Shown in pieces: positions 7,939 to 38,121 of a stretch of 38,121 bases of DNA. Location of the stretch: IMG/VR virus record IMGVR_UViG_2563366897_000009; one strand, given 5' to 3'. This DNA is from a virus. Taxonomy: Duplodnaviria > Heunggongvirae > Uroviricota > Caudoviricetes. Position 1 is the first letter of the stretch. Every line of letters begins with the position of its first letter. The notes beneath the pieces were generated by a model. It searched no databases. It worked only from the letters and a program-made list of their open reading frames with translations, and was not told where the DNA came from. A program made the position numbers and the translations under genes.

Positions 7939-7979
7939 AGCGCGCACAAAACAGGCGAAAGCGGGATTTAAAAATCCCG
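7889..7979. repeat. two copies of an 18-bp palindrome (CGGGATTnAnAAATCCCG), 73 bp apart, upstream of parM; candidate parC-like centromere or operator
   Basis: Copies at 7889..7906 and 7962..7979; the first lies inside the 3' end of A, the second just before the parM ribosome-binding site. Confidence 0.5.
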
Positions 7980-8014
7980 TAAACGGTTAATTAACCAACA
8001 TAAGGAAAACCGAC

Positions 8015-8974
8015 ATGAAAATTTGTATCGACGACGGCTCCACCAACATCAAGCTGGCATGGACTGAGAATGGCGAACGCCGCAACGCCATCAGCCCGAA
8101 CAGCTTCAAGTCGGAATGGTCTGCGCCGTTCGGTGGCATGCAGCCCGCGAACTACATGCTTGATGGCGTGCGCTATGGTTTTGATCCGGTCAGCGATCGC
8201 TTTGTCCAGACGACCGACACGCAATACCAGTACAGCGATGTGAATGTAATCGCCATTCATCACGCGCTGGTCAAATCAGGCATCACGCCACAAGAGGTGG
8301 ATGTGGTTGTCACCCTGCCACTGAGCGAGTATTTCGAGACAAACGCACAGCCGGACATGGCCAACATCAACCGCAAAAAAGCGAACGTTATGCGCTCGGT
8401 GGAGTACCAGAACGGCGAAGCATTCACTATCCGTAACGTGCGGGTTATGCCTGAATCCATTCCGGCTGGCTTTAAAGCACTGGCTGACATGAGTCCGTTT
8501 GAATCCCTGCTGATTGTGGATTTAGGCGGAACCACGCTGGATGTGGCAAAGGTTCAAGGGCAACTGGCAGGTATCAGCCAGGTGTTTTGCGATCCACACG
8601 TAGGCGTTTCCCTGATGGCCGATGCCGTACTGTCGGTGATGGCCACTAACGGTATGCGCACCAGTCACCACATCGCCAATACCATTATCGAACATCGCCA
8701 TGATGAAGCCTGGCTGCGCCAGCACATCCACAATGACGCGCATTACGCCAGCCTGATGGCGGTTATTCGTGAAAAGGAAGAAACACTGAAACAACGCGTG
8801 ATCCGCGCGCTGGCGGTTTTTTCGGGTTACGGGCGGGTGATGGTTGTCGGTGGAGGGGCGGAGATTGTGGCACCCGCTATCCGCGAAGTCTGCGGAGTTA
8901 ATGCGACTTTCATCGCGGACGGGGTGCCACAGTTTGCTCTGGTTAATGGGCTGTACGCAATGGACAAGGAGTAA
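8015..8974 (+). CDS. parM: ParM/StbA-like actin-type partition ATPase
   Basis: N-terminus MKICIDDGSTNIKLAW and the motifs VMPESIPAG, DLGGTTLD and VGGGAE resemble plasmid R1 ParM as recalled. Confidence 0.8.
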   Translation: MKICIDDGSTNIKLAWTENGERRNAISPNSFKSEWSAPFGGMQPANYMLDGVRYGFDPVSDRFVQTTDTQYQYSDVNVIAIHHALVKSGITPQEVDVVVTLPLSEYFETNAQPDMANINRKKANVMRSVEYQNGEAFTIRNVRVMPESIPAGFKALADMSPFESLLIVDLGGTTLDVAKVQGQLAGISQVFCDPHVGVSLMADAVLSVMATNGMRTSHHIANTIIEHRHDEAWLRQHIHNDAHYASLMAVIREKEETLKQRVIRALAVFSGYGRVMVVGGGAEIVAPAIREVCGVNATFIADGVPQFALVNGLYAMDKE

Positions 8975-8978
8975 ACCA

Positions 8979-9293
8979 ATGACGACACCAACCAGACGGA
9001 TAAGTTTCTATCTGAAGCCCGCCGCCGTCAAGAGTGAACAGGAGGCGTGCAATTACCTCGATAGCCTGCCAGCCTCCGAACGCAGCCGCGCGCAACGCGC
9101 GGCCTTTCTGGCTGGGCTAGCGCTCATAAAGCGCAACCCAGCATTTGCCTACTGGATGGCCGAATGGCCAGAGGACAACCTCCCCTTCAATACCGTTAGC
9201 ATCAAGGAAACATACCAGGATAATCAGCCTAGCGGAGTTGAATGCAATTTTTATAAAATTGCAAAGAATATTCAGACCTTATTCCCAGAATAA
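8979..9293 (+). CDS. parR: ParR-like adaptor (ribbon-helix-helix)
   Basis: RRISFYLKP...LDSLPASERSRAQRAAFLAGLAL resembles the R1 ParR N-terminus as recalled; directly downstream of parM. Confidence 0.6.
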   Translation: MTTPTRRISFYLKPAAVKSEQEACNYLDSLPASERSRAQRAAFLAGLALIKRNPAFAYWMAEWPEDNLPFNTVSIKETYQDNQPSGVECNFYKIAKNIQTLFPE

Positions 9294-9342
9294 TCTGATA
9301 ATTGTATGTGAACTAATAAAATACAGACCAACACATCATTCT

Positions 9343-9365
9343 GGCACCCTTGCTAACAGGGTGCC
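9343..9365. terminator. hairpin between convergent parR and the membrane-protein operon
   Basis: 7-bp perfect stem GGCACCC / GGGTGCC; no clear T-tract. Confidence 0.3.
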
Positions 9366-9376
9366 AATGTTTCAAA

Positions 9377-10219
9377 TCATGATGAAATTGCCGAAGTTTT
9401 TTTATCGTGCTGAAGTACCGCAAATGCCATTAAAACCTCAAGAGAATAGCGGCGATAATACTTAACAAAACCATAATAAAATACTCGGGATGCAGCAATA
9501 CAAAACAAGAGAAGAAAACAAAAAGGTAACAGTCTGATATTTATATCTATTAAAAAGGATAGAAGGAGCAGGAACATAAGCAACCAGACTGAAGCGAGAA
9601 AAACAAATGTAATGTTTCTACAAAAACCATACAAAGCAACATAGTTTTGCATTTTCACCTGATGATTTTTAGAATGTTCATACACATAATGATAAGCAAG
9701 GCGAAAAAGATCGCCCCTCAAGCCCTTACGTCGATATAGCGTAGATACAGAAAAAACATTTATATAACCATCTCGTATTTGCGGCCAAAAGACTTTAATA
9801 AGTATAGAATGCAGTGTGGTTTTATGATGTTCTGCTTTATCAAAAGCTGATACAGGAAATAAAAAAACTCCACGAATAAAATTAACTATACTGAACTTAG
9901 TATTATGTCGTTTTATTTTCAGGGAGCTTCTTTTAGAAAACAGATAAATTGAAGGATACCCAAGTTTACTGTTCATGTATTTTTCAATTAAACAGGATGA
10001 TAGAATAGATATGAAGTGACCTGAAATATATGATAGAACGATTAATACCACATATATAAATACACTTATTATTTCTTTATATTTCAGGATATGGTTAAGA
10101 ATACCTTCTATATAAACAGGGTTAATTTCAATAGAAAACAAAAAAAGGATAAACAGGAATAACCCACCTGGAATTAGATAGCCCAAAAAGTCATAAAATG
10201 AAAACGGATTCTGTGTCAC
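9377..10219 (-). CDS. multi-pass membrane protein of unknown function (hotspot cargo, second gene)
   Basis: 280 aa with about five hydrophobic segments; GTG start preceded by AGGGGGAAG; strongly AT-rich. Confidence 0.6.
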   Translation of the reverse strand: MTQNPFSFYDFLGYLIPGGLFLFILFLFSIEINPVYIEGILNHILKYKEIISVFIYVVLIVLSYISGHFISILSSCLIEKYMNSKLGYPSIYLFSKRSSLKIKRHNTKFSIVNFIRGVFLFPVSAFDKAEHHKTTLHSILIKVFWPQIRDGYINVFSVSTLYRRKGLRGDLFRLAYHYVYEHSKNHQVKMQNYVALYGFCRNITFVFLASVWLLMFLLLLSFLIDINIRLLPFCFLLLFCIAASRVFYYGFVKYYRRYSLEVLMAFAVLQHDKKTSAISS

Positions 10220-10258
10220 ACTTCCCCCTGTGTTACTTGTAAATTAAAGGGTAAAACA

Positions 10259-10756
10259 TTATTTGTTTTTCCGTAAAGGATTAGCTTTCCATCTTCTTAC
10301 TAACCATTCGAATTCTTGATATGTAGTATCCGAATTAATGCTTTCTCTGATTGCTTTAATTAATGGCTCGGCAATATCATATGTCTCTACAACTGTTGTG
10401 TAAGATGTTCTTTTTATCATTTTTTCATCATAAATACCTTCACGAATACTTACAGCAACTCGCTCGTAAAAATTTAAAATATATTGAAATTTTCGGCGCT
10501 CGGCCATTTCTTCATCTGTTATTATGCAACCATCACAAGGAAAAACATAAGAACGAAATGATTTGCCTGAACGATGCACTTGTTTCAGGGTATGCAATGA
10601 CTCTATATATTGCATATCTTGCCGACTCTCAAAAAGAAAGTTGGCCGTTTGAGTTTTTTTTGCGGTACGCACATTGTAGATAATGGTTCCAATGGCAACC
10701 AAAACGCCAAGCAGAACAATAGTATTGCTGATGATTTGTAGTGTTATTGGGTTCAT
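10259..10756 (-). CDS. single-pass membrane protein of unknown function (hotspot cargo, first gene)
   Basis: 165 aa; N-terminal transmembrane helix (residues about 5-27) followed by a charged soluble domain; AT-rich; 40 bp upstream of the 280-aa gene. Confidence 0.6.
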   Translation of the reverse strand: MNPITLQIISNTIVLLGVLVAIGTIIYNVRTAKKTQTANFLFESRQDMQYIESLHTLKQVHRSGKSFRSYVFPCDGCIITDEEMAERRKFQYILNFYERVAVSIREGIYDEKMIKRTSYTTVVETYDIAEPLIKAIRESINSDTTYQEFEWLVRRWKANPLRKNK

Positions 10757-10770
10757 CCTATTTCATCCAT

Positions 10771-10797
10771 AAAAAAGGCGGGGAGCAAATCCCCGCC
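10771..10797 (-). terminator. rho-independent terminator-like hairpin on the minus strand
   Basis: 8-bp perfect stem GGCGGGGA / TCCCCGCC followed by a T6 run on the minus strand, only about 15 bp before the start of the 165-aa gene. Confidence 0.45.
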
Positions 10798-10953
10798 TCA
10801 TTAGAGGTCAACGTAGCTTAGAAACCATCAAATTCATCATACATTTTATTCATATCAACCCCCTCATAGAAATCATAACCACGTTTTGTGGTTTTTGTGA
10901 CGTATAAACTACATCAAAGGCAAGCCACGGTCAAATATATAGGCATGCTTACC

Positions 10954-10980
10954 TGCACAAAAGTGCACAAATTTGCACAA
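10954..10980. repeat. three direct TGCACAA repeats at 10-bp phasing in the cos-proximal region
   Basis: Copies at 10954, 10964 and 10974, with a fourth at 11046; GGATCCGT also occurs twice at 11024..11042. Confidence 0.4.
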
Positions 10981-11076
10981 TTTTTTTGAACGACTTTTTA
11001 CCCTTCCGGCCCGCATGGCGGCTGGATCCGTCAAGGATCCGTGCGTGCACAAAAAAACGCGCTTTTTCTGCGCGCA

Positions 11077-11095
11077 GGTGACGGGGGAACAGCCC
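11077..11095. other. candidate cos cohesive-end region
   Basis: GGTGACGGGGGAACAGC loosely resembles the P2/186 cohesive-end sequence as I remember it; position next to Q fits P2-like cos. Confidence 0.2.
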
Positions 11096-11404
11096 GCGTT
11101 TCAGGGGGTAAATAGTATTCCCTGAGCGATGTCGCAGCGACATAACAGAATGGCCATATTTCTCACGCTGAGCGTGAAAAAGATGTGAGGGCTTTTGATT
11201 TGATGGGGTGAAAGGTAAGGCCGTCAAAATCGCACTGAGGCGGTGAGAACATGCAGTCAGCGCGGTGGGATTGCGTAAGAGTCTGACCGTCGATGATGGT
11301 AATAAACAGGAAAGCGTCGTGAAATTATCTGATTGATACAGGAGCTGGAGAGTCGGGGCATAAATTTTTTATGCCCCGCCGAAGCAGCAGACAAGCGAAG
11401 CGCG

Positions 11405-17913: not shown

Positions 17914-18237
17914 GTGAGCACCATTCAAACAGGGATCACAGAGCAGGTTATTGCATGGCTCTTTGACCACCTGCCAACGGTGTATGCAGTAGGCGCGGCG
18001 GTCAGCATTTCCGCGCTGATGAGTCTTTATGACGGACGAACACTGGTTCAGACCGTAACGGGATCGCTGGCGTGCGGCGTTCTTGCCATGGCTGTGGCCG
18101 GGTCGTTGCGCTTCTTCGGTTTTCCTGAAGATGCCGTGACGTTTATCGGCGCATCAATCGGTTTTATGGGGGCAGAGAAAGCACGCGATAAGGTTATTGC
18201 GGCCTTTAATCGCAGGGTGAAGGAGAAGGACGAATGA
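17914..18237 (+). CDS. Y: holin (GTG start)
   Basis: About 107 aa with hydrophobic helices; first gene of the lysis cassette. Confidence 0.6.
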   Translation: MSTIQTGITEQVIAWLFDHLPTVYAVGAAVSISALMSLYDGRTLVQTVTGSLACGVLAMAVAGSLRFFGFPEDAVTFIGASIGFMGAEKARDKVIAAFNRRVKEKDE

Positions 18238-18626
18238 GCAACACATTTAAATTCAGCAGCCGGAGCGAAAAGAATTTGCAGGGCGTAAATCCTGATCTGG
18301 TGAAAGTGACCCGACGGGCACTGGAAATTTCGGAAGTGGATTTTGGTATCACCGAAGGGTTGCGCAGTCGTTACCGCCAGAAGCAACTTGTGGCCACAGG
18401 TAAGAGCCAGACCATGAACAGCCGCCACCTTACGGGACATGCCGTGGATGTTGTGGCTTATATCGGCAGCCAAGTGTCATGGGAATGGCCGCTGTACGAA
18501 AAAATCGCAGCCGCATTCAAACAGGCCAGCCGGGAACTGAATATTCCGGTGGAATGGGGCGGCGACTGGAAGACCCTGAAAGACGGACCGCATTTTCAGT
18601 TACCACACGGAGCCTATCCGGCATGA
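18234..18626 (+). CDS. endolysin, peptidase M15-type
   Basis: 130 aa with an SRH...GHAVD motif typical of zinc L-Ala-D-Glu peptidases; AAGGAG ribosome-binding site. Confidence 0.7.
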   Translation: MSNTFKFSSRSEKNLQGVNPDLVKVTRRALEISEVDFGITEGLRSRYRQKQLVATGKSQTMNSRHLTGHAVDVVAYIGSQVSWEWPLYEKIAAAFKQASRELNIPVEWGGDWKTLKDGPHFQLPHGAYPA

Positions 18627-19030
18627 AGCTCTGGCCAACGCTTGGCGTTGCTTTCCTTCTGATTGCCGGATGGGGAACATCCATGCGTCTGTCATGGTCG
18701 CTGGGCCGGGAGAACGCCAGAAACGAAGCGCAGGCCAGCACCCTGAAACGTACCGCCGACACCCTGAATATCATCAGCGCCGGGGTACAGGATATGCAGC
18801 AGGTGCTGGCGCAACTCCGCGTGGAAAATCAGCAACGCAATCAGGACGGAGAGGCAAGACGTGAACAGCTACGCAACGATATTGCAAAAGATGAATGCGC
18901 CCACGCTTTGCCTGACGCTCGTTTTACTGACAGGCTGCGCAGGCACGCAGAACGCGCTACGGCCAGCGCCGTCAGTCCGGCTTATACCGCAGACGCTGAC
19001 CATACCGGTAACGCCTCCCCCCTTCCCTGA
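18623..19030 (+). CDS. lysB: Rz-like inner-membrane spanin
   Basis: N-terminal transmembrane helix then a charged coiled-coil-like region; ATGA overlap with the endolysin stop. Confidence 0.65.
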   Translation: MKLWPTLGVAFLLIAGWGTSMRLSWSLGRENARNEAQASTLKRTADTLNIISAGVQDMQQVLAQLRVENQQRNQDGEARREQLRNDIAKDECAHALPDARFTDRLRRHAERATASAVSPAYTADADHTGNASPLP

Positions 19031-19181
19031 CACTCCCACATGGGGAAATCTCGGTATATGGGGCGACCGCCTTCTGGATGCACTGGAAACCTGTAACGCG
19101 GATAAACGGGCCATTGAATTACTGGAACAGCGCAGGCTGCAACGACTGAACAACGAGGACAACAACCATGCTGAAAACTGA
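18861..19181 (+). CDS. lysC: Rz1-like outer-membrane lipoprotein spanin, embedded in another frame; start uncertain (GTG 18861 or ATG 18891)
   Basis: Lipobox LLTGC and a proline-rich mature region; embedded in and extending past lysB as in P2. Confidence 0.6.
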   Translation: MNSYATILQKMNAPTLCLTLVLLTGCAGTQNALRPAPSVRLIPQTLTIPVTPPPFPDTPTWGNLGIWGDRLLDALETCNADKRAIELLEQRRLQRLNNEDNNHAEN

Positions 19182-22613: not shown

Positions 22614-24038
22614 ATGAGTACCACAACACGAAAATTTAAAACCGTTATCACCGATACAGGTGCAAAAAAATTAGCTCAGGCAGCCGCGCCAGATGGTAAG
22701 CCTGTCCGCCTGACTCATATGGCCGTGGGCGACGGTGGCGGCACGTTGCCCACACCAGACAGTAAGCAGACCCGTCTGGTGCATGAGGTGTGGCGACACA
22801 CTGTTAATCGCGTCATCCTGGACGCAACACATCAGAACCGCATTATTGCGGAGCTGGTTATACCTCCTGAAACGGGCGGATTCTGGATCCGGGAAATTGG
22901 TGTATTTGATGAGCACGGCGATTTAATCGCGGTGGGCAATACTGCCGAAAGTTACAAGCCAACCGTTGCCGAGGGGTCCGGACGTGCACAAACATTTCGC
23001 ACCATTCTGACCGTATCCAGCACTGCCAGCGTGGCGCTTACCGTGGATAACACCATGGTGATGGCCACAGTGGATTACGTGGATGACAAACTGAAAGAGC
23101 ATGAACAGTCACGACGTCACCCGGATGCCTCGCTGACCGCAAAAGGCTTTGTTCAACTCAGTAGCGCCACTAACAGCGATTCTGAAACGCTGGCCGCAAC
23201 GCCGAAAGCGGTTAAGGCCGCGTATGACCTGGCTAACGGAAAATATACCGCTCAGGACGCCACGACGGCACGAAAAGGGATAGTCCAGCTCAGCAGTGCA
23301 ACCAACAGCACGTCTGAAACGCAGGCTGCAACGCCGAAAGCAGTAAAGGCGGCATATGACCTTGCTAACGCAAAATATACCGCTCAGGACGCAACGACGG
23401 CACGAAAAGGGATAGTTCAGCTCAGTAGCGCCACTAACAGCCCGTCTGAAACGCTGGCTGCGACACCAAAAGCGGTTAAGGCGGTAATGGATGAAACGAA
23501 CAAGAAAGCGCCTTTAAACAGTCCTGCGCTGACCGGAACGCCAACAACGCCAACTGCGCGACAGGGAACGAATAATACCCAAATCGCAAGCACGGCTTTC
23601 GTTATGGCTGCGATTGCCGCCCTTGTAGATTCGTCACCTGACGCACTGAATACGCTGAACAAGTTAGCGGCGGCGCTGGGAAACGACCCGAATTTTGCGA
23701 CCACCATGACTAACGCGCTTGCGGGTAAGCAACCGAAAGATGCCACCCTGACGGCGCTGGCCGGGCTTGCTACTGCGGCAGACAGGTTTCCGTATTTTAC
23801 GGGGAATGATGTCGCCAGCCTGGCAACCCTGACAAAAGTCGGGCGGGATATTCTTGCGAAATCGACCGTTGCTGCCGTTATCGAATACCTCGGTTTGCAG
23901 GAAACGGTAAATCTGGCTTCTGGCGCATTACAGAAAAACCAGAACGGCGCAGATATTCCGGGTAAAGATACCTTCACCAAAAACATTGGTGCCTGCCGCG
24001 AAGACGGCGCAGGGATGAAAAAAGGTATGGAGCATTAG
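22614..24038 (+). CDS. H: tail fibre protein H, conserved part plus a 44-aa tail after the crossover site; distal domain appears truncated
   Basis: 474 aa with three tandem 44-aa fibre repeats; the reading frame crosses the invertase site at 23878..23903 and stops at 24036. Confidence 0.75.
   Translation: MSTTTRKFKTVITDTGAKKLAQAAAPDGKPVRLTHMAVGDGGGTLPTPDSKQTRLVHEVWRHTVNRVILDATHQNRIIAELVIPPETGGFWIREIGVFDEHGDLIAVGNTAESYKPTVAEGSGRAQTFRTILTVSSTASVALTVDNTMVMATVDYVDDKLKEHEQSRRHPDASLTAKGFVQLSSATNSDSETLAATPKAVKAAYDLANGKYTAQDATTARKGIVQLSSATNSTSETQAATPKAVKAAYDLANAKYTAQDATTARKGIVQLSSATNSPSETLAATPKAVKAVMDETNKKAPLNSPALTGTPTTPTARQGTNNTQIASTAFVMAAIAALVDSSPDALNTLNKLAAALGNDPNFATTMTNALAGKQPKDATLTALAGLATAADRFPYFTGNDVASLATLTKVGRDILAKSTVAAVIEYLGLQETVNLASGALQKNQNGADIPGKDTFTKNIGACREDGAGMKKGMEH
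23878..23903. repeat. left crossover site for the Gin/Pin-type invertase (gix-like), inside H
   Basis: TTATCGAATACCTCGGTTTGCAGGAA is the inverted counterpart of the site at 27181..27206, differing at a few positions; both share the central TC/GA dinucleotide. Confidence 0.7.
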
Positions 24039-25142: not shown

Positions 25143-26241
25143 TAGGATGAGTGTAAAGAACATCTAAGCGCGAAAAAGAAAAAAGCCAGCACGCTAAAAG
25201 TGAAAAACAAAGCCTGGTATCACTCGGCTTTAATATGAACCAGCGATAGGCCGGTCAGATAAAGTTAAGAATTTTTTCCGAGGAAAATTAACAAATGTTA
25301 ACAGAGTGAATACTCTTTTTGCAGCTAGTCCAATATATGCACAAACGCAGCCTCCCGGTAATTTTTGCGGAGCTGAGGTAACTAGTAATAGCTTCATATC
25401 ACGTCCTGATGTTTACGGTGAATTGATTGGCCAGTCTGGCTCTGCCGTAACACCGAGTCAGACCGTAGATGAGTAGCGTTCACATGAATCAACACGTGAG
25501 GACTCGTTACCTTCCGCAGTAGTCAGCGTGATTGAGCGATTGAGTCGCTGTATAAGGCTGTCTATGTCGGCGAGTGAGGAATGCTCTTGACTTGCGTCCT
25601 GGGGTCGCTGTAGAGCTGTCGTCTAAAGCCGGTAAACGACAAAGCCATCATGGCCCCACAATCTACCTGAGTCGTCAGGGCGCCGGTTGGAGCTTATACC
25701 CGTTCTGGTAACACCGCTAAAACTATCGGCAGGCTGCGAGGAAGTATAGCTTCTAATTTCTACACTAATAGCATCCTCACCGTTAATATTCTTTTATTTG
25801 CGTCGGAAAAGGTGCCTCGCTTTCTCAGAGCAGTCCTTCCCTGCGTCTTATCAAAGACGAACTGTAGCATGCTTTTCTGTTAATTTTCCCTCTGCCAGCT
25901 TTTCACCGTTACCGGATTTTATCGCTTTTCAATGCCTCCTTCTATGAGCATCCAACATCCTGCCATGTGCGAATGGTATATTGTTGTAATAGCCGGTAAT
26001 TAAAAGCCGCTTGATTCTTGCGGAATAAGTAACCAGTCACCCTAATCAATACAACAGATAATACCTGTCTTGTCGTGCACCAGTAGCTCCGTGTTTGGCA
26101 GGTAATTATATTGTTCCTCAGATCAGATCTTAGCATCCTATCAATAACATATCTTGATTTAATGTTGTCCCGGTTGCTTGGATTTATCTGTTGTTTTAGG
26201 GCTGATAGCACTAAGGTTTCTGTAGTGCATCATCGATAGAA

Positions 26242-27180
26242 ACGCCCGGCTTTATACCACCTCCGATCAGCGCCAGATGGTCTTGACCAAGTTCCCCACG
26301 AGTCAATTGATTCATTACGGGTTCCGTTATTTGAACTTGTAACGGCATAACACTACCTGTCAGCACAGTCAATACCCTTCAATGATAGAGCAGAGCACTT
26401 TCTACACAGGCGTATATGCATAATATTACCAGAATTACATTGTGCCTCAGCATCAGTTTGAACATACCCCGTAGAGGTATCTCCGGAAGCGGTTGAATTC
26501 CCCGCCCGGTCAGTAGCAGAGCCAAAACCAAGATTTCCTCTAAAAATGGCATTAACACCGATCCTTGAATTAAAGCAATAATACCCACGAGCGCAGCTCC
26601 ACTCCTGAATGGCTAGGGCGTTGGTGCTTGCTGTTGCACGACTAATAGCTCCCCAATTAAATCCGGTTTGACAGTTCGTGTAATCCTGTGTAGGATTAAT
26701 GACCGTTCGCCCTTTTTGGGCTAAAACAAACGCAGGCAGAGCCTTGTTCGCGACGTAATAAAGGCTGCATCCAGGATCTTATTCATCGCTATTTTTAATA
26801 GAGTGGAATTCGGGCTCATTAATCTGGCCCGCCCAAAACTAACCTGCCGTAGATACGCGAAGGGTAGTCCAGCCGCCAGTGATAATCATTTCATCGACTG
26901 CACATGTATGAAAAGCATTATCACAACTGGCATATGTGGTGGCTATAATCACTGCATAAGCCCATGAGCCTTTGCTCCCTGAGTAAGGCTGGTTAATTGC
27001 TGCCTGCCACTCTCCACCAACAGTAAAATACGGCGCATTACAGACCTACCGATCCCTACCTTTATTCAGCCACACCCCGCATTCGCGGCAGGCACCAATG
27101 TTTTTGGGGAAGGTATCTTTACCCGGAATATCTGCGCCGTTCTGGTTTTTCTGTAATGCGCCAGAAGCCTGATTTACCGT
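26242..27180 (-). pseudogene. reverse-orientation tail-fibre variable arm broken by in-frame stops
   Basis: Read inward from the right crossover site the first 44 codons nearly repeat those after the left site, then a TAG; fibre-like sequence continues with further TAG/TAA/TGA stops. Confidence 0.5.
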
Positions 27181-27206
27181 TTCCTGTAAACCGAGGTTTT
27201 AGATAA
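27181..27206. repeat. right crossover site for the Gin/Pin-type invertase
   Basis: TTCCTGTAAACCGAGGTTTTAGATAA resembles gix/hix-type sites as recalled; lies 55 bp before the invertase start. Confidence 0.75.
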
Positions 27207-27260
27207 TGGCCGTTTCCGGCCTGCATGGCATGATTTGCGCTTTTGGACGGGAGATTCAGT

Positions 27261-27860
27261 GTGCTGATTGGTTATGTAAGGGTATCAACAAATGACCAGA
27301 ATACAGGCCTGCAACGAAACGCTCTTGTTTGTGCAGGATGTGAACAAATATTTGAAGATAAATTAAGCGGGACAAAGACAGACCGACCGGGATTAAAACG
27401 CGCTTTAAAGCGGCTTCAAAAAGGTGACACGCTGGTTGTCTGGAAACTGGATCGCCTTGGGCGAAGCATGAAACATCTGATTTCTCTCGTCGGAGAACTA
27501 CGGGAGCGAGGGATTAATTTTCGCAGTCTGACCGACAGCATAGATACATCTTCTCCAATGGGGCGTTTTTTCTTCCACGTGATGGGTGCCCTGGCTGAAA
27601 TGGAACGTGAATTAATTGTTGAACGTACACTGGCCGGACTGGCGGCAGCGCGCGCACGGGGGCGCACAGGCGGACGTCGCCCGAAGCTGACAAAAGAACA
27701 GCATGAGCAAATAGCAAGGCTGATCAAAAACGGTCATGACAGGAAACAACTGGCGATCATTTACGGCATCGGCATATCGACGATTTATCGTTATCACCCT
27801 GTAGGCGATATACAGGCTGAAGAAACAACCTGGCAGACTCAGGAAAATGAAAACCGCTAA
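27261..27860 (+). CDS. serine DNA invertase (Pin/Gin/Hin/Cin family)
   Basis: VLIGYVRVSTNDQNTGLQRNAL...VWKLDRLGRS is close to e14 Pin as recalled; GTG start with a GGGAG ribosome-binding site. Confidence 0.85.
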   Translation: MLIGYVRVSTNDQNTGLQRNALVCAGCEQIFEDKLSGTKTDRPGLKRALKRLQKGDTLVVWKLDRLGRSMKHLISLVGELRERGINFRSLTDSIDTSSPMGRFFFHVMGALAEMERELIVERTLAGLAAARARGRTGGRRPKLTKEQHEQIARLIKNGHDRKQLAIIYGIGISTIYRYHPVGDIQAEETTWQTQENENR

Positions 27861-33619: not shown

Positions 33620-34729
33620 ATGACCGACACCACCATGCAATTGCTCAGTCAGGGCACAGACCCCGTGAAAATGCCGGATTTTGATATTCTCGCGGAGGGT
33701 AAAACGCTGTCAGGCGTGGCAGAGCGCCTGATGAGCCTGTCACTGACCGACAACCGGGGATTTGAGGCGGACCAGCTCACCATCATGCTGGATGATGCAG
33801 ATGGTCAGTTGCAGCTACCGCCACGGGGCGCGCACCTGACGGTTCTCATTGGCTGGAAAGGAGAACCGCTGACAGAAAAAGGCACTTACATTGTTGATGA
33901 AATCGCTCACGAAGGACCGCCGGACAGGCTGACTGTTTCAGCCAGAAGCGCAGATTTTCGGGATGAATTTAACGTTAAACGTGAGGTGTCCTGGCATGAT
34001 GTGACCATTGAGCGTGTGGTATCCGCCATCGCTCATCGGTATGGTCTGAAACCGCAAATCAGCGAAATGCTGATGGATATCGAAATCGACCACGCCGACC
34101 AGACCGAAGAAAGCGACATGTCCTTCCTTACGCGCATGGCGGAAATGCTGGGCGCAATCACCACGGTAAAAAGCGGTAATCTGTTATTCATTATGCCAGG
34201 CGGTGGCGTGAACGCACAGGGCCAGCCGTTGCCATCGTTCGCCATCACGCGCAGCAGTGGCGATCGCCATCAGTTCCGCATTGCTGACCGCGAGGCGTAT
34301 ACGGGGGTACGCGCTTACTGGCTTGATCTTAATTACGGGAAAAAGAAAAAAGTCAGCGTGAAACGCCGCAAACCGCCAAAACCCAAAAAGGAGAAAAGCA
34401 GCAGCCGTGAAGGTGATTATATGGAAGGCGCGGAAGGCAATGTGTTTGTGTTACGCAAGACTTATCAGAACGAGCAGGCAGCAAGACGCGCAGCGGCGGC
34501 AAAGTGGCAGCAGCTACAACGCGAAGCCGCATCATTCTCCATCACGCTGGCACGTGGTCGTGCAGAACTCTACCCCGAAATGCATGGCACGGTAACAGGA
34601 TTTAAAAGCGAGATTGATAATCAGGACTGGATTATTGCAAAAGCCGAGCACACCATCGATAACAGCGGCTTTACCACGCAGCTTGAGCTTGAGGCAAAAA
34701 TCCCGGAATGGATAGCAGAAACAGAGTGA
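33620..34729 (+). CDS. D: tail protein D (late control gene D family)
   Basis: 369 aa immediately upstream of ogr; GGAGGG ribosome-binding site. Confidence 0.7.
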   Translation: MTDTTMQLLSQGTDPVKMPDFDILAEGKTLSGVAERLMSLSLTDNRGFEADQLTIMLDDADGQLQLPPRGAHLTVLIGWKGEPLTEKGTYIVDEIAHEGPPDRLTVSARSADFRDEFNVKREVSWHDVTIERVVSAIAHRYGLKPQISEMLMDIEIDHADQTEESDMSFLTRMAEMLGAITTVKSGNLLFIMPGGGVNAQGQPLPSFAITRSSGDRHQFRIADREAYTGVRAYWLDLNYGKKKKVSVKRRKPPKPKKEKSSSREGDYMEGAEGNVFVLRKTYQNEQAARRAAAAKWQQLQREAASFSITLARGRAELYPEMHGTVTGFKSEIDNQDWIIAKAEHTIDNSGFTTQLELEAKIPEWIAETE

Positions 34730-34771
34730 GCAACTTAGAATAGCAGCAGCACCACGTTAAGGGAGGTCGCT

Positions 34772-35032
34772 ATGTTCCGTTGTCCGCTTTGTGGCGCATC
34801 TGCCCGTATCCGCACCAGTCGTCCGGAAAATGATTCAAACACCGTGCGGCAAAAGTATTACCAGTGTAACAACCTGGAATGCGGCGTATGCTTCTCAACA
34901 CTGGAAGCTTTCCATAAATTCACATCAAAACACGCCTCCGGTGTTCACTCTTCAGAAGGTATCCCGTGGCATGAGCTGCCAGCTTCACACAGGGGAAACA
35001 ATCAGATGAGTTTGCCTTTATCTCAGAATTAA
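34772..35032 (+). CDS. ogr: Ogr/Delta zinc-finger late-gene activator
   Basis: MFRCPLCGASARIRTSR...YYQCNNLECGVCFSTLEAF matches the Ogr Cys4 pattern; AGGGAGG ribosome-binding site. Confidence 0.85.
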   Translation: MFRCPLCGASARIRTSRPENDSNTVRQKYYQCNNLECGVCFSTLEAFHKFTSKHASGVHSSEGIPWHELPASHRGNNQMSLPLSQN

Positions 35033-35223
35033 CAGGCAGAATTGCCGGAGTAACAAAAAAGCGATAGATTACGCGCGGGTGCCTTTCGGCTGATGGTCGG
35101 AGGGAATACCCGAAGGCCAGATGTGGAAAGGCCCCGGAAAACATTTCTGTTTAACCGAGGCCCTAACATATCTACCTTAAGCAAGTGATAGGTTAGCGCC
35201 TCTCCAACAAAGGAGCAAGCGCT

Positions 35224-35364
35224 ATGTCGCAAAAATCGCTTACGGCCATCACGTTCTGCGTGACGGTAATCCTCATCATCTGGATGCTGCACGGTTCGCT
35301 GTGTGAAATACGGATGAGCTTTTGGGGAGCGGAGTTTGCGGCGTTCTTACAGTGTAAGCAGTAA
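35224..35364 (+). CDS. Hok/Gef-family type I toxin (46 aa)
   Basis: MSQKSLTAITFCVTVILIIWMLHGSLCEIR...EFAAFLQCKQ: transmembrane helix then the SLCEIR and AAFL signature; AAAGGAG ribosome-binding site; below the ORF-track cutoff. Confidence 0.65.
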   Translation: MSQKSLTAITFCVTVILIIWMLHGSLCEIRMSFWGAEFAAFLQCKQ

Positions 35365-35382
35365 GGAAACCGCGACGGGGGA

Positions 35383-35404
35383 GTAATCCCCCGTCAATCG
35401 GTTG
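35383..35404 (+). terminator. hairpin at the 3' end of the hok-like mRNA
   Basis: GACGGGGGA-GTAAT-CCCCCGTC: 8-bp GC-rich stem just downstream of the toxin stop. Confidence 0.4.
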
Positions 35405-35626
35405 CTAGGGTAAGGTCGATAAGGCACCCTATCTCACAGCTCTAAATGCAAAAATTCCATGAAACTGTGGGATTTTTGCATCACATACTGATACAGACCA
35501 GCCCTTCTATATGCCTCACTCTATACCAGCTAATCAATTGACACTTATCAATAAAAATAAATCTGATAAAATCAAAATGTTTTGTAACAAATATCAACTC
35601 GTATTAATCCAAAGGAGGCGGATTAC

Positions 35627-35959
35627 ATGGCATTAATCAAATGTCCTGAATGCCAGAAAGAGGTGAGCGATTCAGCATTGTATTGCCCTGCTTGTGGTAA
35701 ACAACTGCAAAAACTTAAGCGTTCATTTTTTGGACGGATCATTAAGTGGGTTTTTATATTATTTAATATTTTTATGATCTATACGCTTTTAGTTGGAATA
35801 GGAGGCACTAGTGAAATAATAAATAATGCCACATCCGATGCCGAAAAAGCCGGTGCAGTTATTGGTACAGGCTTAGGTTTAATTACCATTGGAAGCTTAT
35901 GGGTTATTGGCGATATCATTATCGGAATTTTAGTATTTCTTACTAAACCAAAGGGATAA
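35627..35959 (+). CDS. zinc-ribbon membrane protein (cargo)
   Basis: 110 aa; N-terminal CPEC...CPAC zinc ribbon followed by two hydrophobic helices; AAGGAGG ribosome-binding site; AT-rich. Confidence 0.6.
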   Translation: MALIKCPECQKEVSDSALYCPACGKQLQKLKRSFFGRIIKWVFILFNIFMIYTLLVGIGGTSEIINNATSDAEKAGAVIGTGLGLITIGSLWVIGDIIIGILVFLTKPKG

Positions 35960-35963
35960 TAAA

Positions 35964-36857
35964 ATGAAAAATATAATTTTTTCTATAGGTGCATCATTTA
36001 TATCAATTAGTGTACTGCCTGTTCACGCAGCAACTGAACATAAGAACTTCAATGCAGTACTTCAGTGCCGAGCAATAGAAAATAATAAAGACAGACTTTC
36101 TTGTTACGATAAGTCAATACAACCGACTCGAACGAAAGTTGCTGAAAAATTCGAAAGCAGAGATCAATGCCCTGATGAGAAAGATGATGATAGACGTTTA
36201 TCTTGTTATGATCGTTTCTTTTCTCCAACATTTACTCCATCTGTAAACTCAAAATCTAAAACGGAAAAGCCAGTAACAACAGAGGCTCAGCAACCAAATC
36301 TTTCTGAGATATCTAAATGTCGTGCAGAAAATGATAAAGAAGCCAGACTAAACTGCTACGATAAACTATTCCCACAGGATAAAATCGCTCAAGCTGAATC
36401 AAAATTAGAGAAAGCCACAGATGTAGGAAAATGGCACACATCCATTACTACATCGCCAATTGATGATTCGAAAAATGTAATTTTATCGTTAGAAAGTGAT
36501 GATTATATCAGAACTCCATTTGGAGAAGCGGTTACTCCTACTCTTTTTATAGCTTGCCGAGAAAAGAAAACCGAAGTATTTCTTAGTTGGGATGTATATT
36601 TAGGCCTTGAACAAACCAGCATGCTTTATCGCCTTGATAAACAGAAAGCAGTTGAGCGAAACTGGCTAGTATCTACAGATACAAAGGCTGTTTTTTATAA
36701 AGGTAATGACATTGATTTCATCCGAAAACTAGCCAACTCAAGCAAAATGTATACAAAAATAACGCCTTATAATGAGAGCCCCGTAAGTGCAACTTTCAAT
36801 TTAAACGGCCTGTCAAACGCGCTAAAACCGCTTCAAGCTGCTTGTAACTGGAAATAG
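35964..36857 (+). CDS. secreted or periplasmic Cys-repeat protein (cargo)
   Basis: 297 aa; signal peptide ending VHA-A; three roughly 45-aa repeats each ending RLSCYD(K/R); AT-rich. Confidence 0.6.
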   Translation: MKNIIFSIGASFISISVLPVHAATEHKNFNAVLQCRAIENNKDRLSCYDKSIQPTRTKVAEKFESRDQCPDEKDDDRRLSCYDRFFSPTFTPSVNSKSKTEKPVTTEAQQPNLSEISKCRAENDKEARLNCYDKLFPQDKIAQAESKLEKATDVGKWHTSITTSPIDDSKNVILSLESDDYIRTPFGEAVTPTLFIACREKKTEVFLSWDVYLGLEQTSMLYRLDKQKAVERNWLVSTDTKAVFYKGNDIDFIRKLANSSKMYTKITPYNESPVSATFNLNGLSNALKPLQAACNWK

Positions 36858-36885
36858 TATTAAATCATGTGGCTTAGCCACAATC

Positions 36886-36929
36886 ACAGATAACACAAAG
36901 CCCGTGAAAACGGGCTTTGTGTTATCTGT
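36886..36929. terminator. long perfect hairpin (19-bp stem) after the cargo operon
   Basis: ACAGATAACACAAAGCCCG-TGAAAA-CGGGCTTTGTGTTATCTGT, about 30 bp past the stop of the 297-aa gene and 12 bp before attR. Confidence 0.5.
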
Positions 36930-36940
36930 AACTCGAAAAT

Positions 36941-36959
36941 GTGGTCACTGCGTGGACAC
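36941..36959. repeat. attR core (right copy, GTGGTCACTGCGTGGACAC)
   Basis: Direct repeat of 11..29 with one mismatch; sits between the last prophage cargo gene and flk. Confidence 0.6.
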
Positions 36960-37125
36960 GCGCTGACATAAATCCTTTTACATCAATAAATTAAGTCATC
37001 ATTTTTTTCATCAACAAGGATTTTCACGTTTGTGTTACCTGTATGAGACGAGAGTTAACCAGACAAGTGTGCCATAATCTCGCGGCCAGGCATACTTGCG
37101 AAGATTTCAGGTATAAGGATACGTA

Positions 37126-38121
37126 ATGATACAACCTATTTCCGGCCCTCCTCCTGGGCAACCACCAGGTCAGGGAGATAACCTGCCGTCTGGCGCGGGC
37201 AATCAGCCTTTATCCAGTCAGCAACGTACTTCGCTGGAAAGCTTAATGACGAAAGTGACCTCACTGACGCAACAACAAAGAGCAGAACTGTGGGCGGGTA
37301 TCAGGCACGATATTGGTCTGTCGGGAGATTCACCGCTGCTTTCGCGTCACTTCCCTGCCGCTGAGCATAATCTGGCGCAACGTCTGTTGGCCGCGCAGAA
37401 AAGCCATTCTGCCCGCCAGCTTTTAGCGCAATTAGGGGAGTATTTACGTCTGGGGAATAATCGTCAGGCGGTCACGGATTATATCCGTCATAACTTTGGT
37501 CAGACGCCGCTGAATCAGCTCTCACCGGAGCAATTAAAAACCATTCTCACCCTGTTGCAGGAAGGGAAGATGGTTATTCCGCAACCACAGCAGCGCGAGG
37601 CGACCGACCGTCCTTTATTACCGGCGGAGCACAATGCGCTCAAACAGCTGGTGACCAAACTTGCGGCAGCAACGGGGGAACCCAGCAAACAGATCTGGCA
37701 ATCGATGCTGGAACTTTCCGGGGTGAAAGATGGCGAGTTAATTCCAGCGAAACTGTTTAACCATCTGGTGACCTGGCTACAGGCGCGTCAGACGCTAAGC
37801 CAGCAAAATACGCCGACGCTTGAATCACTACAGATGGCGCTGAAACAACCTTTAGATGCCAGTGAACTGGCGGCGTTATCGGCATATATCCAGCAAAAAT
37901 ATGGCCTTTCTGCGCAATCATCGCTTTCTTCTGCCCAGGCCGAGGATATTCTTAACCAGCTTTATCAACGGCGGGTTAAAGGGATTGAGCCGCGTGATAT
38001 GCAACCGCTGCTTAATCCTTTTCCACCGATGATGGACACGTTGCAAAATATGGCAACGCGTCCCGCGCTGTGGATACTGTTAGTCGCGATTATCCTGATG
38101 CTGGTCTGGCTGGTTCGTTAA
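37126..38121 (+). CDS. flk: host flagellar regulator Flk (C-terminal membrane anchor)
   Basis: 331 aa; Pro/Gln-rich N-terminus and hydrophobic C-terminal anchor match E. coli Flk as recalled; lies outside attR. Confidence 0.7.
   Translation: MIQPISGPPPGQPPGQGDNLPSGAGNQPLSSQQRTSLESLMTKVTSLTQQQRAELWAGIRHDIGLSGDSPLLSRHFPAAEHNLAQRLLAAQKSHSARQLLAQLGEYLRLGNNRQAVTDYIRHNFGQTPLNQLSPEQLKTILTLLQEGKMVIPQPQQREATDRPLLPAEHNALKQLVTKLAAATGEPSKQIWQSMLELSGVKDGELIPAKLFNHLVTWLQARQTLSQQNTPTLESLQMALKQPLDASELAALSAYIQQKYGLSAQSSLSSAQAEDILNQLYQRRVKGIEPRDMQPLLNPFPPMMDTLQNMATRPALWILLVAIILMLVWLVR

Follow-up and report, generated by a model that had tools for sequence, protein, structure and literature searches.

Which function is served by two small genes that occupy the last position inside a P2-like prophage and belong to none of its core functions? 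This question is raised by the IMG/VR virus record IMGVR_UViG_2563366897_000009, a stretch of 38,121 nucleotides that was analyzed at its full length (hereafter the window) and in which the open reading frames (ORFs) ORF1 (35627-35959, + strand) and ORF2 (35964-36857, + strand) lie beside the right attachment site attR. A first-pass annotation, made from the sequence letters alone, had described the two genes as AT-rich cargo encoding a zinc-ribbon membrane protein and a secreted Cys-repeat protein, and had suggested a lysogenic-conversion, exclusion or envelope-modifying module. The present analysis shows that the pair is a moron, i.e. an autonomous unit of promoter, genes and terminator, which P2-like (Xuanwuvirus/Peduoviridae) phages carry at their ogr-attP end. 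Concerning its role, we tentatively favor, with a probability of roughly 40%, an envelope module that is expressed in the lysogen and provides superinfection exclusion or defence against other phages, with ORF2 as the effector.

An autonomous promoter-genes-terminator unit beside attR

The window holds a complete P2-like prophage, the gene content of which is identical to a stretch of the chromosome of E. coli NR1430. Its genes are arranged in the order integrase (1-1005), C/Cox switch, gpA, portal, terminase, capsid, lysis and tail genes, gpD and ogr. The prophage is delimited by a 19-nt direct repeat with 18/19 identical positions, which represents the attL and attR cores (11-29 and 36941-36959, 36,930 nt apart), and the gene past attR is host flk, starting at 37126 (NF007987, 507 bits). 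ORF1 and ORF2 are the last genes inside the prophage, between ogr/hok and attR, so that their earlier description as non-core cargo beside attR holds. The nearest sequenced phages are Citrobacter phage Shae_phiSM (99.3% over 1.6 kb), Escherichia phages PhiR44_2 and 500465-2 and Xuanwuvirus P884B11.

The tight linkage of the two genes was confirmed, as only 4 nt separate the stop of ORF1 from the start of ORF2, and the Prokaryotic Genome Annotation Pipeline (PGAP) annotates both coding sequences in the identical E. coli record. The pair is also as markedly AT-rich as had been noted: its GC content is 0.362 versus 0.517 for the prophage, and 33 of 715 segments of equal length are equally AT-rich. 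The 12 segments with the lowest GC content all fall within a second island (~9150-9800), which is the sole other region of this composition. Strong ribosome-binding sites had been proposed for both genes. As read from the sequence, this applies to ORF1 (AAGGAGG, 35612-35618, + strand, 8 nt before the ATG at 35627), whereas the site of ORF2 is weaker (AAGGGA, 35951-35956, + strand, within the 3' end of ORF1 and 7 nt before the ATG at 35964).

A consensus scan located a promoter-like site past the hok terminator, at 35545-35572 on the + strand, which consists of a -35 element TTATCA, a 16-nt spacer and an extended -10 element TGaTAAAAT. Matches to the promoter consensus were no more numerous in this region than expected by chance. 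The motif T(T)GTCA/TTATCA, followed after 16/17 nt by TGATAAAAT, is kept after a terminator and 5' of the ORF1 homologues of Klebsiella, Dickeya, Enterobacter, Brenneria and further IMG/VR loci, and the same arrangement precedes one gene that is homologous to ORF2 (VasI-like, see below) and lacks an ORF1 neighbor. A palindrome lies across or directly beside the -35 element in this conserved promoter, reading TCAATTGA in the window (35531-35545) and TGTCAATTGACA in Dickeya and Brenneria loci (promoters of loci L017, L024, L127 and L128); it may be an operator for some regulator.

Downstream of ORF2, an intrinsic terminator with a perfect 20-bp stem and a 4-nt loop is present at 36886-36929 (+ strand; fold z = -8.9 versus shuffles). 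This is the hairpin that had been reported with a 19-bp stem. An A-rich arm upstream pairs with TTTGTGTT, the sequence that comes after the GC core AAAGCCCG/CGGGCTTT. Because the T-rich tail is engaged in this pairing, the stem reads 20 bp and a simple terminator scan missed the hairpin. In the sequence-unrelated loci L012, L016, L021, L024 and L126, a stem rich in GC and then a run of T occupy the same position past the VasI-like gene.

In comparisons with copies that are 88-94% identical, the ratio of nonsynonymous to synonymous substitution rates (dN/dS) was 0.13-0.32 for ORF2 and 0.39-0.68 for ORF1. Both values are below 1, and both ORFs are therefore real genes under purifying selection. 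The conserved promoter and terminator give the unit the classic layout of a moron, which is complemented by the deviating GC content (0.36 versus 0.52), the non-core position and the rarity of the unit (27 of 50,697 phage records).

The distribution of the pair, a check already proposed by the first-pass annotation, was followed across genera. All Enterobacterales homologues that were looked up (Klebsiella, E. coli, Citrobacter and Dickeya) occupy the terminal position of a P2-like prophage, past ogr, and the prophages concerned are integrated at different chromosomal sites. The hosts of P2-like prophages with the pair are E. coli, Klebsiella, Enterobacter, Citrobacter, Dickeya and Brenneria, and its layout is conserved across genera. 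About 65 of 80 IMG/VR loci with a VasI-like gene carry an ORF1 homologue directly upstream. After de-duplication, 46 distinct pairs remained, in which the two proteins diverge in step (r = 0.93). The initial idea that ORF1 is more conserved than ORF2 was dropped, since the mean identity to the window over these 46 pairs is equal (75.5% for ORF1 and 74.3% for the C-terminal domain of ORF2).

These data bear on the proposal that the pair is a selfish passenger, i.e. a captured host DrpB-like gene (ORF1, see below) and a VasI-like gene that hitch-hike at the att end and decay without benefit. In its favor, ORF2 copies broken by IS1 or frameshifts exist (H29, NZ_AP027419.1; L093, L095 and L101-L105), and the full pair is present in only 237 of 5426 complete E. 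coli genomes (~4%). Nevertheless, both genes are under purifying selection, and pair, promoter and terminator are shared by genera ranging from Escherichia to Dickeya and Brenneria, with 50-75% identity between the proteins, which is unlike junk DNA. We consider a mere passenger very unlikely.

On its upstream side, the pair is directly adjoined by a hok/sok-type type I toxin-antitoxin locus (35077-35364), comprising a Hok/Gef ORF (35224-35364; Pfam E 4e-7, phrog MokW-like) and a sok match in Rfam (35077-35234) of 47.9 bits, short of the gathering score (59). The slot contains this locus in E. coli and Citrobacter but lacks it in Klebsiella and Dickeya. An Rfam scan of 34700-37200 yielded this sub-threshold sok match, spurious miRNA matches on the terminator hairpin and nothing else.

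ORF2 and the VasI/TagO family

Profile searches placed ORF2 (297 aa, putatively exported) in a named family that had been overlooked before, VasI/TagO, an assignment given by Pfam and by PGAP, the latter of which names the protein TagO. The match to the Pfam model VasI (PF11319) reaches 88.8 bits (E 4.6e-25) and passes the gathering score of 26.5. It is divided into three stretches, the best of which aligns residues 118-296 to positions 1-184 of the 184 in the profile, and the N-terminal part of the model matches each of the Cys motifs of ORF2.

The architecture of ORF2 corresponds to that of the Pfam family, with an export signal (as read from the sequence), a Cys...RLxCYD motif, a beta domain and a C-terminal C-x-W. 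Residues 1-22 (MKNIIFSIGASFISISVLPVHA; 35964-36029, + strand) resemble a signal peptide with a putative cut at VHA-A and no lipobox, and all ORF2 homologues open with a comparable hydrophobic N-terminus. Three C-x11-C-Y-D motifs follow on the + strand, each recognized by a regular expression on the translation: motif 1 at residues 35-49 (CRAIENNKDRLSCYD; 36066-36110), modeled by AlphaFold 2 as a helix-turn-helix (29-35/41-51); motif 2 at residues 69-83 (CPDEKDDDRRLSCYD; 36168-36212), also seen in the AlphaFold 2 model and in the alignment of homologues; and motif 3 at residues 119-133 (CRAENDKEARLNCYD; 36318-36362), which the alignment of homologues identifies as the ancestral VasI motif. The earlier view of ORF2 as a putatively exported Cys-rich repeat protein is thus retained, with the correction that two of the three motifs read RLSCYD and one reads RLNCYD.

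The AlphaFold model, calculated with 24 homologues, consists of three short helix-turn-helix units with a Cys pair each, disordered linkers and a C-terminal beta-sandwich (residues ~150-297; 36411-36854, + strand). The latter is modeled confidently (predicted local distance difference test mostly 85-96) and carries the invariant C198 and C294. All 24 aligned homologues share C119, R128, L129, C131, D133, C198, C294 and W296, and these columns also line up with the VasI protein encoded in the T6SS (type VI secretion system) cluster of strain EDL933, the single motif of which corresponds to motif 3. In the first homology search (92 cluster representatives), homologue lengths of ~210, 250 and 297 aa corresponded to one, two and three Cys motifs; motif 1 is absent from the one-motif homologues. 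Sequence searches of the PDB with whole ORF2 and with the Cys-repeat region alone returned nothing meaningful. According to the model, the C-terminal domain is a beta-sandwich of the VasI/IalB type. IalB, the invasion-associated locus B protein of Bartonella (PF06776; PDB 3dtd), matches in fold only and is without the Cys-motif N-terminal region, and this match names a fold, not a mechanism.

To determine how ORF2 relates to genuine T6SS proteins, it was compared with the T6SS VasI/TagO equivalog model TIGR03360. ORF2 scored 75.9 bits, below the curated cut-off of 124.2, and other phage-borne homologues scored 35-57 bits, whereas the VasI protein of the EDL933 T6SS cluster (between tssH and tssA) reached 257.4 bits. 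ORF2 and the latter are 26% identical over 195 residues. None of the ORF2 homologues in the loci examined was located in a T6SS cluster, and ORF2 itself lies in a prophage between ogr/hok and attR. The candidate assignment of ORF2 as the VasI of a T6SS was ruled out by the TIGR03360 score, the 26% identity and the location of all close homologues examined in P2-like prophages. T6SS VasI/TagO proteins (PF11319, TIGR03360; VCA0118 of V. cholerae and its counterpart in E. coli) have the same build as ORF2, with an N-terminal export signal, C-x11-C-Y-D and a beta-sandwich ending in C-x-W; ORF2 differs by the triplicated Cys motif, the prophage location beside attR and the DrpB-like zinc-ribbon partner. 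As judged from these sequence comparisons, ORF2 is a phage-specific paralogue of VasI/TagO and not a T6SS component.

A connection to T6SS might nevertheless exist at the level of function, if the phage supplied a variant VasI/TagO that joins or tunes the T6SS of its host or shields the lysogen from attack by T6SS or tailocins. Such an activity would change how bacteria compete with one another and corresponds to the 'virulence cargo' view of Magaziner et al. (2019; PMC6456863), who list the near-identical phiSM gene as cargo under 'T6SS VasI family protein - virulence'. The true homology and shared architecture described above are in line with this proposal. In addition, T6SS are commonly carried by the named hosts of phages with close homologues, i.e. 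E. coli, C. rodentium and Klebsiella. Against it stand the equivalog score, the location of the homologues outside T6SS clusters and the conserved partner, which is DrpB-like and not a Tss or Tag protein. Furthermore, phages of Pasteurella, Brucella, Roseibium and Klebsiella contain weaker VasI-like matches, with 27-36% identity across the C-terminal half and 28-36% in those of Brucella and Pasteurella; Brucella, to our knowledge, has no T6SS. A role in T6SS also predicts little, because a review of T6SS accessory factors from 2026 (PMC13584744) gives the function of VasI/TagO itself as 'Unknown'. Modulation of T6SS therefore appears unlikely to us. Many phages encode uncharacterized proteins in which the VasI fold recurs, among them Escherichia phage RB16 and Klebsiella phage KP15. 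In the GenBank record of Shae_phiSM (OR565851.1, 165-1395) the annotations of the pair are swapped, as 'tagO' is attached to the zinc-ribbon gene and the VasI-like gene is labeled hypothetical.

The zinc ribbon and membrane module of ORF1

ORF1 (110 aa) combines a C4 zinc ribbon with a DrpB-like two-helix module (residues ~28-110). Its designation as a zinc-ribbon membrane protein was supported by matches to Pfam Zn_Ribbon_1 (PF13240, E 1e-7) and phrog_6586 (E 5e-41) and by two predicted transmembrane (TM) helices. The ribbon is formed by residues 1-27, in which C6, C9, C20 and C23 are invariant or nearly so in the family alignment, and the AlphaFold 2 model contains two long helices (34-66 and 71-105). 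There are six Lys/Arg residues ahead of helix 1, an acidic loop (58-76) and a tail that reads TKPKG. This distribution of charges suggests an N-in/C-in topology with a cytoplasmic ribbon. A PDB sequence search with ORF1 returned nothing meaningful. ORF1 as a holin or lysis protein was ruled out, since the lysis cassette lies elsewhere (17914-19181) and is complete.

The NCBIfam model of DrpB/YedR (NF038392) matched residues 28-109 of ORF1 along positions 2-84 of the 86 in the profile, with 21.3 bits (E 2.6e-4) and thus below the cut-off of 50, and precomputed matches to PF28000 (DrpB) are available for several ORF1 homologues. An alignment of the ORF1 family was compared profile to profile, using hhalign, with a purpose-built alignment of the DrpB family, which gave a probability of 93.3% (E 2.7e-7, 78 columns). 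The comparison superposed R-S-x2-G-K...W-x-F before helix 1 and T-R/K-P after helix 2 of ORF1 on the DrpB motifs R-S-x-G-G-K...W-x-F and W-Y-T-R-P, so that R32-S33, G36-K/R37, W41, F43, T106 and P108 of ORF1 align with R14-S15, G18-K19, W23, F25, T89 and P91 of DrpB. T106 is invariant in the ORF1 family, and T89 is the one residue of DrpB whose mutation (T89A) abolished Rcs activation (PMC11709261). A DrpB hidden Markov model also matches 74 of 144 ORF1-family representatives (top ones). Taken together, the alignments indicate that the membrane part of ORF1 is a distant homologue of the cell-division protein DrpB (YedR).

In E. coli, DrpB is a divisome protein that is not essential and that activates Rcs in multicopy; septal localization, suppression of ftsEX defects and Rcs activation are described for it (PMC11709261). 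It has the two-helix inner-membrane module and the juxtamembrane motifs in common with ORF1; ORF1 differs by its N-terminal C4 zinc ribbon, its location on phages and its pairing with a putatively exported protein, with which it is presumably co-transcribed. Homology to a characterized housekeeping family had been named beforehand as an argument against a conversion module. The relationship of ORF1 to DrpB comes close to this, but it is distant, remains below the NCBIfam cut-off and concerns a phage-carried gene.

With 330 representatives at E <= 1e-10, the family of ORF1 is large, and it contains many forms of 85-100 aa without a zinc ribbon. Outside P2-like phages, ORF1-like genes are either lone chromosomal genes or follow a gene for a protein with zinc ribbon, TM helix and periplasmic domain, and a VasI-like neighbor was found in only 7 of 55 genome loci. 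This second recurrent partner of the DrpB-like module is encoded 1-30 nt upstream of the ORF1-like gene and is a protein of 166-256 aa that combines a zinc ribbon and a single TM helix with a periplasmic domain lacking a Pfam match. It is present in Photorhabdus, Xenorhabdus, Shinella, Brucella/Ochrobactrum, Pseudoalteromonas and a metagenome-assembled genome of the Desulfovibrionaceae (loci L031, L035-L037, L040, L045, L053 and L063, ~5200-6330 in each).

The homology to DrpB could mean that ORF1 is the active part of the pair and ORF2 a periplasmic cofactor in envelope signaling or division. Like DrpB when overproduced, ORF1 would then trigger the Rcs (and Psp) stress responses or act at the divisome, leading to changes in capsule, motility or cell wall, and resistance to phages, if any, would follow indirectly from the capsule. 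The hhalign result, the alignment of T106 with T89 and the large, often chromosomal family argue for this proposal. It is weakened by the distant homology, by the lower constraint on ORF1 among close relatives given above and by the fact that DrpB effects were seen on overexpression, with no single-copy Rcs phenotype known (PMC11709261). Moreover, of the 65 distinct loci tabulated, 19 have the VasI-like gene but no ORF1, and at least 4 of these 19 are frameshifted copies. In ~15 distinct phage loci it is kept without ORF1, for which reason ORF2, and not ORF1, is argued to be the core of the unit. A signaling or division role led by ORF1 is thus regarded as doubtful.

Envelope protection of the lysogen as the proposed role

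In the role favored here, the pair would be transcribed in the lysogen from its own sigma-70 promoter. ORF2 would be exported by Sec, oxidized by DsbA to form up to four disulfides, expected at 35-47, 69-81, 119-131 and 198-294, and act in the periplasm, with the DrpB-like ORF1 as its membrane partner or regulator, and the envelope of the lysogen would be shielded against incoming phages at the entry step. The conserved promoter and terminator fit a conversion or exclusion module that is expressed in the lysogen, and ~90% of the prophage genes of C. rodentium were reported to be transcribed (PMC6456863). The conversion, exclusion or envelope-modifying role suggested by the first-pass annotation is compatible with all of the present results. 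The VasI-like protein is proposed as the effector because it is also found alone in other phages. In the ~15 loci without ORF1, the gene stands alone beside ogr or between repressor and integrase. The latter position was found in L146 (checked with Pfam) and, with the same gene order, in L151 and L153 (~5500-7560). There, a one-motif VasI-like gene lies between helix-turn-helix repressor-like and integrase genes on one strand, divergent from a gene read as Cox-like from its position and size (no Pfam match). The VasI-like gene is thus situated within the lysogeny operon, in the layout of the P2 C-int operon. In L009 (8001-9126; E. coli GCA_009776205.1), a two-motif VasI-like gene encoding 250 aa is located at the ogr/hok end of another P2-like prophage and is convergent with a different gene in the partner position, which encodes a 98-aa membrane protein with a zinc ribbon and a TM2 domain. 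Envelope protection is considered the likeliest role on several grounds taken together: the unit is laid out like a moron, VasI-like genes occupy lysogeny operons, both products would be in the envelope, Cys motifs have been gained in a modular way and the membrane partner is replaced in L009.

The pair can be compared with known systems. P1 Sim, T4 Imm and Sp and P22 SieA are morons or periplasmic or membrane superinfection-exclusion proteins that resemble the pair as AT-rich cargo with own promoter and terminator, located at the edge of temperate genomes and coding for envelope-targeted products. The pair has no sequence or fold relationship to them. The sole experimental lead on the VasI fold is SDIC4B of Serratia (157 aa), a component of Serratia defence island candidate 4 (SDIC4), for which a VasI-like fold was described by its authors from HHpred and AlphaFold and which alone conferred 10-200-fold protection against several phages (bioRxiv 10.1101/2024.01.28.577318). 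The sequences of SDIC4A and SDIC4B were recovered from plasmid sequences in the supplement of that paper. Like ORF2, SDIC4B is small, opens with a signal-peptide-like segment, has a reported VasI-type fold, belongs to a two-gene operon on mobile Enterobacterales DNA and may act alone. Differences are that SDIC4A, as judged from its N-terminus, is exported too, unlike the zinc-ribbon membrane protein ORF1, and that SDIC4 is tied to BrxR in chromosomal islands and the ORF1-ORF2 pair to P2-like prophages. Since sequence similarity was not detected, membership of the pair in SDIC4 was rejected, and SDIC4 serves as an analogy of mechanism only.

Several observations weigh against a protective function. 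The SDIC4B analogy itself rests on the fold similarity reported by its authors and not on sequence: SDIC4B and ORF2 or the ORF2 family showed no sequence similarity (BLASTP E 51; hhalign probability 0.3%), and a Pfam scan of SDIC4A and SDIC4B gave no VasI match on SDIC4B. The PADLOC models of known defence systems did not match ORF1, ORF2 or hok. The pair is located outside the defence hotspot of P2 (gpA-gpQ, next to cos; Rousset et al., 2022), and in this prophage the gpA-gpQ slot (~7940-11400) holds other cargo. The dN/dS values of ORF2 do not indicate accelerated, arms-race evolution, and the homology to DrpB points equally well to division or Rcs signaling. A lone relative of ORF1 is present in Haemophilus paracuniculus between genes read as uvrB and leuB. 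Finally, the broken copies imply that ORF2 is dispensable for the phage and is decaying in some lineages.

A more specific version of envelope protection would be a two-part barrier, in which the periplasmic VasI/IalB-fold protein, with its variable helical hairpins stapled by disulfides, and the zinc-ribbon DrpB-like protein intercept contractile injection devices (myophage tails, tailocins or T6SS spikes) or block the entry of DNA. We consider this mechanism quite improbable at present.

Other parts of the prophage carry further cargo. The second AT-rich island contains genes at 9377-10756 on the minus strand (GC ~0.32) for a 280-aa protein, with only a weak Csx27-like match in PADLOC (E 1e-5), and for a DUF4760 protein. 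As these genes lie in the gpA-gpQ slot described by Rousset et al. (2022), they are a candidate defence pair. Beside the hotspot, ParM-like and partition/stability genes are annotated (8015-9293), which is unusual in an integrating phage. The tail-fibre gene has three tandem 132-nt direct repeats (23123-23518), the second and third of which are 79% and 67% identical to the first. A resolvase/invertase gene (27261-27860) adjoins oppositely oriented tail-fibre-assembly genes (region 25144-27860), an arrangement that suggests an inversion switch for host range.

Databases have names for both genes, and the public record also covers the family to which ORF2 belongs and its occurrence on phiSM. What appears to be new is the phage-specific VasI clade with scores below the T6SS equivalog cut-off, the conserved pairing of a VasI-like gene with a zinc-ribbon DrpB homologue, the series from one to three Cys motifs and the conserved frame of promoter and terminator; in a literature search, no paper was found that describes or tests the ORF1-ORF2 pair. 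VasI/TagO, IalB and DrpB are named families without known mechanism, and the pair joins paralogues of VasI and DrpB in a small portable unit. Cloning of the two genes would therefore be informative for three orphan families at once. If the pair is an exclusion system, the ogr-att slot would join the known defence hotspots of P2-like phages, and if it acts as a two-part barrier, this would provide the first molecular function for the VasI/TagO fold and the DrpB family.

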